Shown here: positions 7,901 to 11,692 of the stretch, piece by piece
How positions within the stretch are numbered: the stretch's first letter is position 1
Layout of the letters: the number at the start of each line of letters is the position of its first letter
NCBI GenBank assembly: GCA_045862915.1
Contig: BTVE01000010.1
Span: 7,968-71,967 of the forward strand
Origin: Acidimicrobiia bacterium
Lineage (GTDB): Bacteria; Acidobacteriota; Vicinamibacteria; Vicinamibacterales; SCN-69-37
Reading direction: 5' to 3'
DNA length: 64,000 bases
Position numbers and translations under genes: made by a program
The notes under the pieces: generated by a model
Told to the model about the DNA's origin: nothing
Seen by the model: the letters and a program-made list of their open reading frames with translations, nothing else
Databases searched by the model: none

Positions 7901-9307
7901 TCACTTCACCAGCCGCGTGTCCGGAAACTGCGCGTACCAGCCAAACCAGAACGCGCGGAAGGCGGCCACGCGGGGCAACTTTCGTCGGCCGCCTTCTGAT
8001 ACCAGTGCGTCCTCGGTGACGGTCCAGCGTGTGCCCGACCCGTCCCGCACCCGCCCGTCGTCAATCCATTCGACGATGCGGGTGTCGCCCACCTCGAAGA
8101 CACGATTGGCGCCGCGTCGTGAGGTCAACACGACAAACGAGCGGCCTTCGACCGTTTCGTGATGGATGCGTGTACGGGCCAGGTAGTCCGCTGAAAATGC
8201 GACGGCCTGGCGACCACCACCGACTGCCGGCACAAGGAGGCCCAGCACCTCATCCTTGTTCTTGAGCCTGGTGTCGAGTTTCGGCACACGGAACATGAGG
8301 CGGTCGGTCTGGAAGTAGTCGCGATAGGCCGCACCCTCCCCGTAGTCGCGATCGTGCCCGGTGTCGAGTGACAACACTGTCGTCTTCGGATGGGTGCGTC
8401 GCCACTCGCCCCACGTGGTGGTGACGATCGGCAGAGCTTCAAGCGTGAGCGGTTGTCCCGCGAGTGGACCGATCACCGGCGTGCCGTCGAGCGTGGACCA
8501 GAGACTCATCGACTCGCGATCGAACATGAGCTTGTTCGAACGATACAGCAGGCCGCTTGTGCCGAACGTCCGCTTCGTGTCGCCAACCACGCTTTTGTAC
8601 GGGATGACCGAGCCGCAGAGTGTGCAGTAGACGATGGTGAGGTCGACGTTACCGAAGCGGTCGAGCGCCATTTCGTGCCAGGCAAGAATGCGCTTGGGAT
8701 AGGCGCGAGCCTCACCGTTCACCACAAGTCCGAAGATGACGTGTGAGTCACCGAGATAGCCGGCTTCTGCCGCGGGAATGGTGCGCGCGTGATCCAGCGG
8801 GGGAATGCCGTTTACCCCAACACCGCCCCAGTCCACTTCATCGAGTCGGATGGTCGCGCGTGTGCGGGACTCAAAGAACTGCCGCATGCGCGGATCGATG
8901 TGCGCGTACACCGCCGCCTTGAACGCGGCGTACTCGGGGTGTGGGTCGAAGGGGAGGCTCCACATCCACTCGCGCCAGCGGTTGAGGTCATCGCCGAAGC
9001 GTTGACCGGTCTGCCGCTCGAGGAACCTGATCAGGCGGACACGCACGGGGTTCGGAAAGGGCTCGCCGTTCACCACCCGAGGCGGCAACAGGCGCGCCAC
9101 GTCGATGAACATGGCGGCCCAGCCGTCTTTCCATGATGCGGCGATCTGCGCCAACGCCCTGTCAGCCACTGCAGCGTCAGCTCCAGCGGCGTCGAGAAAG
9201 ACCGAGACAGGTGGAACCTGTGTCGCGCGCGCGCGGACATCTGCGCCCACGCCCACCAGCGCGGCGCCAACCAGAACGCCGACCGCGACGCGCAGCCCTC
9301 CTGTCAT
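7901..9307 (-). CDS. DUF3179 domain protein, secreted/anchored
   Basis: ORF 7901..9433. The ATG at 9307 (MTGGLRVAVGVLVGAALVGV) overlaps the DoxX stop as ATGA. DUF3179-type motif IVYCTLCGSVIPY is present. Confidence 0.8.
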   Translation of the reverse strand: MTGGLRVAVGVLVGAALVGVGADVRARATQVPPVSVFLDAAGADAAVADRALAQIAASWKDGWAAMFIDVARLLPPRVVNGEPFPNPVRVRLIRFLERQTGQRFGDDLNRWREWMWSLPFDPHPEYAAFKAAVYAHIDPRMRQFFESRTRATIRLDEVDWGGVGVNGIPPLDHARTIPAAEAGYLGDSHVIFGLVVNGEARAYPKRILAWHEMALDRFGNVDLTIVYCTLCGSVIPYKSVVGDTKRTFGTSGLLYRSNKLMFDRESMSLWSTLDGTPVIGPLAGQPLTLEALPIVTTTWGEWRRTHPKTTVLSLDTGHDRDYGEGAAYRDYFQTDRLMFRVPKLDTRLKNKDEVLGLLVPAVGGGRQAVAFSADYLARTRIHHETVEGRSFVVLTSRRGANRVFEVGDTRIVEWIDDGRVRDGSGTRWTVTEDALVSEGGRRKLPRVAAFRAFWFGWYAQFPDTRLVK

Positions 9308-9759
9308 GCGGCTTGATGATTGCCGATCCGCGCGCCGGTCGCGCTGCCAATCAGGTAGTCGAGCGAGAACATTCCTGGGCCCTTCGCCAGAATCAACAGC
9401 AGCGTACCGGCCCAGTAGAGGTGGTCGGCCCATGCGTTGGGATACACGAACGTCTGGATCACCGCGATCATGCCAAACAAGGGCAGCGTCGCGAGACGCG
9501 TTCCGAGACCGAGGAACAGGAACACCGGCAGCGCGAGCTCCTGAATCATGGCCATGCGGGCCCCGAACTCGGGGTCCAGAAAGGGCACCTTGTATTCGTC
9601 GCGGAAGAGCAACACGGTGAATTCAAAGGACTCGTATTTGAGGAGTCCGGCCTTGAAGAACACCATGCCGACGCCAACACGCGCGAGCAGCAGTAGCACG
9701 GACATGGGAATCCGGTCGAGGTGGGACGTGATGGCGTGATAACGGGCAGCTAGGGACAT
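9304..9759 (-). CDS. bufD: DoxX family membrane protein (BufD-like)
   Basis: 151 aa, four TM segments, DoxX-like N-terminus RIPMSVLLLLARVGVGMVFFKAG. Last conserved gene of DUF2282/DUF692/DUF2063/DoxX operons. Confidence 0.8.
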   Translation of the reverse strand: MSLAARYHAITSHLDRIPMSVLLLLARVGVGMVFFKAGLLKYESFEFTVLLFRDEYKVPFLDPEFGARMAMIQELALPVFLFLGLGTRLATLPLFGMIAVIQTFVYPNAWADHLYWAGTLLLILAKGPGMFSLDYLIGSATGARIGNHQAA

Positions 9760-10508
9760 ACAACAAGACCTTCGGAAAACAATTGGAGGAGAGTGGCGCC
9801 AGGGTCGAACGTGTCGTCGGCATCGAGTGCCGCACCGGCCGCGCCTTCAATGGAGTGGCCGTTGGCAAGCGCACGGCGGAAGCACCAGTCGCCCTGCGAG
9901 ATGGAACGAATCGTCACGTCTCCGCGCGAGCCTCGAACTTCAATCCAGCGGGGCGAGTCGTCGAGGGTGAACCGCTCAGGCGCCGCTTCGGAGAGGAACG
10001 CGCGCATCAGGTCATCGACGTTGTGAGCGGCCGCGACCCACGCGGTTCCCGGCTGAAGCGCGAGTGTCTGCGTGCCGAGGCCGGTGGGCCCCTGCGTCTG
10101 CAGCCACTGGACAGGCACCGATGGACGCGCGACTTCCACCGAGACACGCCCGAACTCCCATTCCAGCCTTGCGAACGCCTCCAAGTACGTGATGTGCGCG
10201 AGGGGTGCTCGTGCGCCCAGCCACGCCGGAAAGAGCGCGCCAAACTCCGCCATGCAGAAGACACGCGGCGGATGGACGGCGACGAACTCGCGCGCGGCAT
10301 CCATCACGGCGGCATCGCCAATCAGCCACGCCGTAGCAGGGAATCGACCACACAACGTTTCGATCAGGCTGGCCTGATAGTGACGCCGGTGAATCGTGAG
10401 CCGCCTCGTCGGATCGGCGCCGCCGATCAGAAGTGGCTTCACCCAAGCGTCGTCGGACATGACGACCCCTGCGCGCACGGCGGCCTGCGTCTCAGCCAGC
10501 GAGGGCAT
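9750..10508 (-). CDS. bufC: DUF2063 protein (BufC-like partner of the MNIO enzyme)
   Basis: ORF 9750..10574. The ATG at 10508 gives MPSLAETQAAVRAGVV, a typical DUF2063 start. Overlaps both neighbours. Confidence 0.75.
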   Translation of the reverse strand: MPSLAETQAAVRAGVVMSDDAWVKPLLIGGADPTRRLTIHRRHYQASLIETLCGRFPATAWLIGDAAVMDAAREFVAVHPPRVFCMAEFGALFPAWLGARAPLAHITYLEAFARLEWEFGRVSVEVARPSVPVQWLQTQGPTGLGTQTLALQPGTAWVAAAHNVDDLMRAFLSEAAPERFTLDDSPRWIEVRGSRGDVTIRSISQGDWCFRRALANGHSIEGAAGAALDADDTFDPGATLLQLFSEGLVVCP

Positions 10509-11400
10509 ACGTGCGGGTCCCCGACAGATTGTGTTCAGCCGCCGTGACGCCCGCCTCAGCGTGCGTCCGTGCACGCCGGGCCTCGTGGATCAACGAGCCG
10601 AGATCCTGAATGTCGTTGTCGCGTTCGATCAGCGTGGGTTTCGAGCCAATGTGGGCGACCGCGTATTCGTACAACGCCCATGACGCCTCATCAACCACGG
10701 TGCCATGCGTGTCGATGATGACCGTCCCCCCAGGTGTCGCGTCATCGTCTTCAACCTCGAACCCGCCGAGGTGCAGTTCGCCGACCGCAGACCAGGGGAG
10801 CGCTCGCACGTACGCGTGCGCGTCGAAGCCCATGTTGTGTGCGCTGAGGTGGATGTTGCTGACGTCCACCAGGAGCCGGCATCCTGTGCGCGCCACCAGT
10901 TCAGTCAGGAACTCCGGCTCGGTCATCGTCGAGCCGACAAAGCCGACGTAGCTGGAGGGGTTTTCCAGCAGAAACGACCGGCCAAACGTGTCCTGCACTT
11001 CGTTGATGTGTTGTGTGAGCACGGACAGGGATTCGTCGGTGTACGGCAGCGGGAGCAGGTCGTTGAGATATTCCCCCTCGTGGGTGGACCACGCGACGTG
11101 ACCGGAGAGCAGCACGGGGTTCACGCGATCGACGAGCGCCTTCACGCGGTGAAGGTGCGCGCGGTCAACGCCTGACGTGCTGCCGACCGACACACCAACG
11201 GTGTGAATCGAGATTGGGTAGTGCTCGGCGATCTGCAGCAGCAGTTCGGTGGCGTGCGGGTTGGCGAGGAACGACTCCGGGTGCACCTCGAAGAACGGGA
11301 CGTGTGGTCGGGTGGCCACCACCTCGGCCAGATGCGGGAGCCGCAGGCCGAGTCCGGCGCCTGAGTCGAGCGGATTCAGGGATGCGCGCATGATGACCAC
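10492..11400 (-). CDS. bufB: DUF692 / MNIO family enzyme (BufB-like, MbnB-related)
   Basis: 302 aa, TIM-barrel DUF692-like (GLGLRLPHLAEVV, HPESFL, SIHTVGVSVGS). Start is GTG 11400 or ATG 11391. Confidence 0.85.
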   Translation of the reverse strand: MVIMRASLNPLDSGAGLGLRLPHLAEVVATRPHVPFFEVHPESFLANPHATELLLQIAEHYPISIHTVGVSVGSTSGVDRAHLHRVKALVDRVNPVLLSGHVAWSTHEGEYLNDLLPLPYTDESLSVLTQHINEVQDTFGRSFLLENPSSYVGFVGSTMTEPEFLTELVARTGCRLLVDVSNIHLSAHNMGFDAHAYVRALPWSAVGELHLGGFEVEDDDATPGGTVIIDTHGTVVDEASWALYEYAVAHIGSKPTLIERDNDIQDLGSLIHEARRARTHAEAGVTAAEHNLSGTRTYALAG

Positions 11401-11413
11401 CCGTCCTGAGCTG

Positions 11414-11692
11414 TTACATCGGCTGCTTCGTGCCGTTGACGATGCGCTCGCAGTAGCCCTCGGCGACGAAGATCCACGCCTTCGGATCGCCGTTCATCTT
11501 CGAGTGTCCGGCGCACGAGTTGTTGCCGGTGGACGCGCAGTCGTTTTTGCCGGCCTTGGCAATGCCGTAGCACTTCTCGGCCTTGAACGCCGGGGCCTGG
11601 GCTTGAGTTGTGGTGACCGCAGCGTAGAGTGCGGGAGCGGAGACAGCGGCCGCAAGGGCCGAGGCGATGACGAGACGTTTGTTGACGGGCAT
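11414..11692 (-). CDS. bufA: DUF2282 secreted peptide, bufferin-type RiPP precursor (BufA1-like)
   Basis: The ATG at 11692 is preceded by AAGGAG. Sec signal [24 protein letters not shown]. The core has four Cys: [44 protein letters not shown]. Confidence 0.85.
   Translation of the reverse strand: [92 protein letters not shown]

Follow-up and report, generated by a model that had tools for sequence, protein, structure and literature searches.

We analysed a 64,000-nucleotide (nt) stretch of bacterial DNA from contig BTVE01000010.1 (hereafter the window), in which a preliminary description had located a bufferin-type operon next to genes for an ECF sigma factor and NrsF. Four genes, bufA, bufB, bufC and bufD, were indeed found on the minus strand at 9304-11692, as described (Table 1). 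Their proposed assignment to DUF2282, DUF692/MNIO, DUF2063 and DoxX was likewise borne out, each profile being matched far above its Pfam cut-off; the BufB match spans profile positions 1-261 of 263. A DUF3179 gene follows bufD as a fifth cistron, and an exact sigma-F (ECF16)-type promoter box precedes bufA. The expected ECF sigma/NrsF pair, both members of which were recognized by Pfam, lies 1.7 kb from the operon on the opposite strand.

Table 1. Features of the bufferin locus and its surroundings, in window coordinates unless a locus is named (aa, amino acids)
Feature	Position	Strand	Basis or remark
bufA, bufferin-1-type precursor, 92 aa	11414..11692	-	Pfam DUF2282 (PF10048), 77.5 bits, cut-off 22.4
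bufB, MNIO maturase, 302 aa	10492..11400	-	Pfam MbnB_TglH_ChrH (PF05114, former DUF692), 304.5 bits, cut-off 25
bufC, DUF2063 partner protein, 252 aa from ATG 10508	9750..10508	-	PF09836, 55.2 bits, cut-off 27.2
bufD, DoxX-family membrane protein, 151 aa	9304..9759	-	PF07681, 50.3 bits, cut-off 23.6
DUF3179 gene, fifth cistron, 468 aa	7901..9307	-	Pfam DUF3179, 244.9 bits
Sigma-F (ECF16)-type promoter box GTAACC-N16-CGAA	11755..11780	-	exact consensus match
sigF-like ECF sigma factor gene	13404..13979	+	Pfam Sigma70_r2, Sigma70_r4_2, Sigma70_ECF; NCBIfam ECF models
nrsF, anti-sigma-F membrane protein	13976..14614	+	Pfam NrsF, 81.6 bits
Rieske-FMN_red fusion gene, broken, just upstream of bufA	11814-12718	-	
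Cytochrome P460-like gene, between operon and sigF	12790-13356		CxxCH motif
Cus-like efflux operon	19760-26186	+	unusual fusions
ChrA gene, after the Cus-like operon	26867-28162		15 kb from the bufferin locus
Sigma-F boxes before stand-alone DUF3179 genes	L046:6952-6977; L047:4498-4523; L048:3916-3941; L049:6963-6989		

All five reading frames, bufABCD and the DUF3179 gene, are unbroken. The overlapping stops and starts noted in the preliminary description exist between bufB and bufC (17 nt, from ATG 10508 to TGA 10494-10492) and between bufC and bufD (10 nt), but not between bufA and bufB, which are separated by 13-22 nt (bufA stop at 11416-11414; bufB start at GTG 11400 or ATG 11391). The bufD stop and the DUF3179 start codon share the sequence ATGA at 9307-9304. 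BufC homologues in eight loci support the bufC start at ATG 10508, their alignments beginning with the first residue of this form; a longer bufC open reading frame (ORF) from GTG 10574 is unlikely to be real, as the homologues fit the shorter form. A DUF3179 start at ATG 9433 was also rejected, since homologues align with the shorter form, and the resulting length agrees with that of orthologues (455-470 aa). The genome, 100% complete with 4.52 Mb in 180 contigs, contains a single MNIO gene and a single DUF2282 gene, which makes the pairing of enzyme and precursor unambiguous.

The bufA ATG is preceded at a distance of 8 nt by a ribosome-binding site, AAGGAG. The N-terminus of BufA consists of the charged residues K5 and R6, a single hydrophobic segment (8-26) and AQA at 31-33, and residues 1-33 (11692..11594) are predicted to form a Sec signal peptide. 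This N-terminal part varies among homologues, and the core is conserved. The predicted core comprises 59 aa (11593..11417) with cysteines at core positions 8, 19, 27 and 48; its unmodified monoisotopic mass was computed as 6262.94 Da, provided that the cut follows AQA. The core quoted earlier, which began at EKC, has to be corrected, as the predicted mature peptide begins six residues sooner, with PAFKAEKC. The four cysteines (C41, C52, C60 and C81 in full-length numbering) were invariant among the 17-22 homologues aligned, which were drawn from Acidobacteriota, Photobacterium and one further gammaproteobacterium. The motifs EKCYG, KNDCA, SCAG and GYCE were invariant as well in homologues of 38-98% identity. 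The spacing of the cysteines (11/8/21) equals that of Cys12, Cys23, Cys31 and Cys52 of Caulobacter BufA1. A low-confidence AlphaFold2 model of BufA contains strands at 38-42 and 73-77 (core 5-9 and 40-44) and a helix at 49-55; with a 4-residue offset applied, the strands are the counterparts of strands Thr9-Tyr13 and Trp44-Lys48 found by nuclear magnetic resonance in Caulobacter Buf1, and the helix likewise has its counterpart there. A search of the PDB with the BufA sequence returned no usable relative. BufA is 98% identical to that of one relative whose BufC shares only 67% identity with ours, which indicates purifying selection on the peptide.

Some further observations concern the precursor. 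At BufA residue 63 (core His30, 11503-11505 on the minus strand), a His stands two residues past the third cysteine (CAGHSK) in the window and in same-genus genome G012, and Thr occupies this position in all remaining aligned BufA proteins; the His might be an extra metal ligand or a neutral change. In several Photobacterium loci (L005-L009 and L014), two bufA genes are arranged in tandem 5' of bufB, and tandem bufferin precursors have already been recorded in a published survey. The BufA proteins of relatives are annotated merely as 'DUF2282 domain-containing protein' or 'uncharacterized membrane protein'.

BufB scored above the cut-off of the NCBI equivalog model MNIO_BufB (NF050167; 324.3 bits, cut-off 310) and far below those of the HvfB, ApyH, MbnB and ChrH models. 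In the PDB it matched a DUF692 protein of known crystal structure (3BWW, E 3.9e-33); the matches to TglH and MbnB were weaker. We aligned 28 MNIO sequences from the retrieved loci (27-85% identity). Eight residues of BufB, H101, E146, D179, N182, H210, D230, H232 and E259, were invariant, and H66 was kept in 27 of the 28, the lone exception being a frameshifted gene. These nine residues match the spacing of the iron ligands of MbnB (H54, H90, E133, D163, N166, H192, D208, H210 and E239), the mapping being based on spacing and phmmer ranges.

The AlphaFold2 model of BufC (pLDDT, predicted local distance difference test, 89.3; pTM, predicted template modelling score, 0.82) consists of a helical N-terminal part and a C-terminal part of strands and helices. 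Its top Foldseek matches, with probability 1.00, were TglI (8hci_A, E 4.3e-5, TM 0.56), which is the partner of the MNIO TglH in the TglHI complex, and NGO1945 (3DEE), a DUF2063 protein. The lasso-peptide RiPP-recognition element (RRE) TbiB1 was matched weakly, at rank 50. BufC thus has the makeup of a DUF2063 partner with an RRE-type C-terminal domain. No usable relative of BufC was found by sequence search of the PDB. BufD contains hydrophobic segments and matches the NCBIfam model HvfX weakly; as a DoxX protein, it is a putative membrane oxidoreductase.

The promoter box ends 62 nt 5' of the bufA ATG and starts 34 nt past the stop of the broken Rieske-FMN_red gene. Its consensus, GTAACC-N16-CGAA, was defined in Caulobacter, where transcription of the orthologous operon starts at -61 (PMC3511200). 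Three exact boxes were observed in the window, compared with 0.08 expected. In five related loci (L036, L037, L039, L040 and L042), an exact box lies 53-72 nt before bufA, and the spacers are unrelated; conservation of the box around unrelated spacers amounts to a phylogenetic footprint. The end of sigF and the beginning of nrsF share nucleotides 13976-13979, and the true sigF start may lie 3' of GTG 13404, as the alignments with relatives begin only at residue 21. The sigF neighbourhood is syntenic in the window and in genomes G012 and G006. NrsF contains just two cysteines, Cys127 and Cys177; the distance of 50 residues between them equals that between C131 and C181, which are important for the function of Caulobacter NrsF (PMC3511200). 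Both features of an ECF16 SigF/NrsF regulon, the sigma/anti-sigma pair and the GTAACC-N16-CGAA target, are therefore present, and from these sequence features we infer that bufABCD is driven by a sigma-F-type promoter and controlled by the neighbouring SigF/NrsF.

Between 7000 and 14000, a scan for sigma-70 promoters returned no promoter-like sites, and a terminator scan returned three hits, all inside coding regions and no more than expected by chance. No Rfam family reached its gathering score anywhere in the window, so that no known riboswitch or leader RNA is present there. In two genomes from other genera of the order, G171 (L043) and G281 (L044), no exact or one-mismatch box precedes bufA. 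The only box that these searches returned, with one mismatch, stands before sigF of L044, and in G171 other ECF/zf-HC2 pairs adjoin the operon; these two buf loci may use another sigma factor.

The preliminary description had pointed to Caulobacter as a precedent, and rightly so: an identical four-gene order beside sigF-nrsF is documented there (PMC11626156; PMC3511200). The buf1ABCD operon of Caulobacter vibrioides (CCNA_03363-03366 / CC3254-CC3257) comprises the same four families, with a Sec-exported four-Cys DUF2282 precursor, an MNIO with its DUF2063 partner and a DoxX protein, and it likewise has the GTAACC-N16-CGAA box, a leader of ~60 nt and sigF-nrsF nearby. The two loci differ in host phylum (Acidobacteriota here, Alphaproteobacteria for Caulobacter) and in core length (59 aa here, 68 aa in Caulobacter Buf1). 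Unlike Caulobacter, the present genome has no second (Buf2) cluster, its BufA carries the His two residues past the third cysteine, DUF3179 is coupled behind bufD, and the P460-like and broken Rieske-FMN_red genes lie between the operon and sigF. Orthologous DUF2282/DUF692/DUF2063/DoxX operons induced by transition metals are also known as gig (gold-induced genes) in Cupriavidus metallidurans and Legionella pneumophila; their regulators vary by species.

Two other MNIO systems were considered and rejected. The oxazolin system of Haemophilus influenzae (HvfABC; Buf_EGKCG) also combines a Sec-exported, copper-binding Cys precursor with an MNIO, a DUF2063-type partner and the DoxX-like HvfX. However, our proteins stayed below the cut-offs of its models (HvfB 195.4 vs 360, HvfC 21.5 vs 142, HvfX 46 vs 80), and BufA lacks the EGKCG repeats of the oxazolin precursor. 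Methanobactin synthesis (MbnA/MbnBC) shares the MNIO fold, the nine iron ligands and the oxidation of Cys to a copper-binding heterocycle. Nevertheless, BufB reached only 67.6 bits with the MbnB model TIGR04159 (cut-off 325), neither MbnA nor MbnC was found, and the product predicted here is a folded, Sec-exported 59-residue peptide, in contrast to the short secreted chalkophore.

The locus possesses every testable feature of a Buf1 cluster, i.e. a DUF2282 precursor of 80-120 aa with a signal peptide and four cysteines, a BufB-type MNIO with a full set of iron ligands, a DUF2063 protein and a DoxX protein. The four families in such an order, together with the exact sigma-F box, cannot be an accident. 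We are thus highly confident that the locus is a Buf1-type bufferin cluster, bufABCD, with a sigma-F (ECF16)-type promoter under the control of SigF/NrsF. From the homology to Caulobacter buf1, the following course of events can be proposed. Metal or oxidative stress would free SigF from the membrane anti-sigma factor NrsF, and SigF would transcribe bufA-bufB-bufC-bufD along with the DUF3179 gene, which is translationally coupled to them in this genome. BufB, a multi-iron oxidase acting with BufC in the cytoplasm, would oxidize core Cys19 and Cys27 in four-electron reactions to 5-thiooxazoles. BufA would then be exported by Sec and lose its 33-residue signal peptide, and a disulfide between core Cys8 and Cys48 would staple the small two-stranded fold. 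The resulting 59-residue periplasmic peptide would chelate Cu(I)/Cu(II) 1:1 through two thiooxazole nitrogens and two sulfurs, thereby buffering excess copper. The earlier statement that the cysteines of the Caulobacter bufferin are converted to thiooxazoles is right for the two central cysteines of Buf1 but not for the outer two, which form a disulfide; by homology, two of the four BufA cysteines should be modified. With two such changes (-4.03 Da each, at Cys19 and Cys27) and one disulfide (-2.02 Da), the mature peptide would weigh about 10.08 Da less than the unmodified core. Copper as the relevant metal would fit the nearby Cus-type efflux genes.

The fifth gene deserves separate consideration. 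DUF3179 is an uncharacterized family without known function or structure, and a PDB sequence search with the protein of the window gave no usable relative. This protein has an N-terminal hydrophobic segment and only two cysteines, C228 and C231, which form a CxxC motif. Its coupling to bufD recurs in the same-genus genome G012 (L037). In two other genera of the order, the arrangement differs: in G171, bufABCD is followed by an ECF/zf-HC2 pair and two DUF3179 genes, and in G281, sigF-nrsF-DUF3179 is followed by two unknown genes and bufABCD. Across 401 genomes sampled from the phylum, DUF3179 was present in 150 and MNIO in 106; among the matches listed, G000, G171 and G281 were the only genomes in which at most 5 kb separated the two. 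Close orthologues of the DUF3179 protein (72-76% identity) were found on four long metagenome contigs, in none of which buf genes occurred within 7 kb. All four have an exact sigma-F box, with a spacer of N16 in three and of N17 in the fourth, that ends 11-24 nt before the DUF3179 start, from which very short or absent leaders can be expected. A second, divergent box in L046 and L048 faces a gene of 74-78 aa followed by a peroxiredoxin-DsbD_N gene. One stand-alone locus also contains a sigma factor gene and an intact Rieske-FMN_red gene.

In our reading of these sequences, DUF3179 would be an independent member of the sigma-F regulon that has become joined to the end of the buf operon in this genome. 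The extra co-regulated genes mentioned in the preliminary description can accordingly be retained as members of the same sigma-F regulon, but not as bufferin accessories, given the stand-alone DUF3179 genes with boxes of their own. A different picture would emerge if the five genes made up one functional unit, with the exported CxxC protein as a dedicated bufferin accessory; its task might be to make or break the Cys8-Cys48 disulfide, to hold the thiooxazole thiols in the reduced state, or to reduce copper or pass it on. Such a unit is favoured by the ATGA shared by bufD and DUF3179 here and in G012, and by the proximity of DUF3179 to bufABCD in G171 and G281 in other arrangements. The CxxC motif is of the redox type, as indicated by a short DUF3179 paralogue in G171 (L043:9991-11046, plus strand), a probable selenoprotein with an in-frame TGA at the first Cys of the motif (WUPLC), and by the listing of the family as a UxxC/T selenoprotein (PMC9312934); one in-frame TGA is present in about a third of the acidobacterial DUF3179 matches listed. 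However, the stand-alone orthologues have their own boxes (4/4), co-occurrence with MNIO within 5 kb is as rare as described above, and the published bufferin survey reports no further conserved bufferin genes and leaves DUF3179 unmentioned. A bufferin-specific fifth component is thus largely rejected, and we regard it as quite doubtful. A broader variant, in which the sigma-F regulon of this order is a periplasmic thiol/selenol-and-copper stress set (bufferin, DUF3179, peroxiredoxin-DsbD_N fusion, Rieske-FMN_red and P460-like protein) with DUF3179 working directly with bufferin, is similarly tentative and improbable. If it were true, DUF3179 could set the disulfide/thiol state of bufferin, or reduce or hand over copper, and this would explain why both genes share one operon here.

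Several points weigh against the interpretation as a functional, copper-buffering Buf1 cluster. The BufA cleavage site is a heuristic, rule-of-thumb call, and the confidence of the BufA model is low (pLDDT 61.8). Of the 19 other same-genus genomes, 13 gave no sign of the operon, and the broken Rieske-FMN_red gene at its side shows some local decay. Finally, Caulobacter SigF and the operon orthologues are induced by dichromate and cadmium (PMC3511200), so that copper need not be the inducer here; chromate or cadmium would be equally possible. This last point also feeds the notion that the locus is a true bufferin cluster which, instead of copper stress, serves stress by chromate, cadmium or a further metal, or else oxidative or sulfur stress. 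It would suit the presence of ChrA in the neighbourhood and the nature of other genes with sigma-F boxes, which encode thiol/redox proteins (redoxin-DsbD_N fusion, DUF3179, Rieske-FMN_red and P460-like), and roles of bufferins with other metals are discussed in the literature. On the other hand, purified Caulobacter Buf1 was copper-selective in a metal mixture (dissociation constants ~6e-15 M for Cu2+ and ~7e-20 M for Cu+), bufA1 and bufA2 reporters responded to Cu and not to Fe, Zn or Mn (PMC11626156), and the nearest metal system here is the Cus-type efflux. We therefore consider a function outside copper unlikely, though it is the alternative to which we give the most weight.

The distribution of the operon raises the question of whether it still yields a product. 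MNIO was detected in 6 of 19 other same-genus genomes and in one of five further genera of the family; sampling of 16 additional families of the order yielded none. In this lineage, the buf operon is a patchy accessory, and its absence from most same-genus genomes indicates that it is dispensable. Such patchiness would also be expected of a decaying or silent island without product. The adjoining Rieske-FMN_red gene fits this, as a frameshifting deletion of 184 nt, a length not divisible by three, distinguishes it from its intact counterpart in G012, which reads in a single frame (L037:2341-3429), and so does the frameshifted bufB of relative G013 (L040, G013:C104 ~1812-2057). In the window itself, however, the five frames, all catalytic and Cys positions, the promoter box and the ribosome-binding site are intact, and the purifying selection on the peptide noted above argues in the same direction. 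A silent island is accordingly very hard to reconcile with the data, and we deem it the least credible of the alternatives; the Buf1-type cluster under SigF/NrsF is preferred.

The order of genes varies among related loci: DoxX precedes bufA instead of following bufC in L036 and L038, and L003 contains two tandem DoxX genes (L003:7956-8825). As for the host, the earlier suggestion of a probable acidobacterium agrees with how same-genus genomes are titled and how close homologues are named. It is an acidobacterium, probably of the Vicinamibacterales, a name carried by close DUF3179 homologues. Titles of same-genus genomes include 'Solibacteraceae', 'Acidobacteria bacterium' and, oddly, 'Acidimicrobiia'. 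Contig CBINOO010000008.1 (L001/L037) is titled 'uncultured Acidimicrobiia bacterium', yet a genome search puts its genome in the genus of the window, where its neighbours bear the label Acidobacteria; this public label is probably wrong. DNA of the window occurs in bioreactor, sludge and wastewater metagenomes of several studies. Contigs from sludge metatranscriptomes (three runs, two studies) touch bufA, bufB, bufC and DUF3179 at ~93-99% identity, and one of 348 nt covers the bufA-bufB junction. Coverage is equally sporadic over the broken gene and sigF, and the contigs may stem from DNA carry-over.

The remaining surroundings of the operon comprise further boxes and metal-related genes. The deletion in the Rieske-FMN_red gene takes out the start of the flavodoxin-like domain and might be an assembly error; an intact gene of 365 aa lies close to DUF3179 in L046. 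The interval that separates the Rieske gene from the cytochrome P460-like gene contains two one-mismatch sigma-F boxes, one on each strand, which overlap back to back (12739-12785). A second exact box (17289-17314, plus strand) is situated 9 nt before the ATG of an ORF for an exported protein (17324-18345), which is followed by an ORF with a DsbD_N domain. Metal-resistance genes for a CusA-like RND pump, an outer-membrane factor (OEP), a CusB-cupredoxin fusion and ChrA are located 8-17 kb from the operon. In the Cus-like operon, a YtkA-like domain forms the C-terminus of the RND pump, whose gene is followed by that for the OEP, and the CusB-like adaptor ends in a cupredoxin-like domain. Unrelated to bufferin is a gene for a HipA-type kinase toxin (HipA_C, Couple_hipA; 4950-6254, minus strand) with a small upstream ORF (6251-6604).

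The preliminary description had held that the core system is not new, and this is true. The bufferin family was described in 2024, and published surveys report thousands of bufferin clusters, acidobacterial MNIOs and Buf1 clusters with sigma/NrsF genes. The cluster described here is a clean example of this published system and adds little to it. The only mildly new element is the placement of DUF3179, an uncharacterized redox family, in the sigma-F regulon, for which four independent loci with an exact box provide the evidence. In addition, a distant phylum is seen to use the promoter code of Caulobacter SigF/NrsF without a single changed letter, which makes such regulons readable from sequence there. 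Finally, the analysis predicts precise masses for a bufferin of acidobacteria from wastewater communities, for which copper load is of practical concern.

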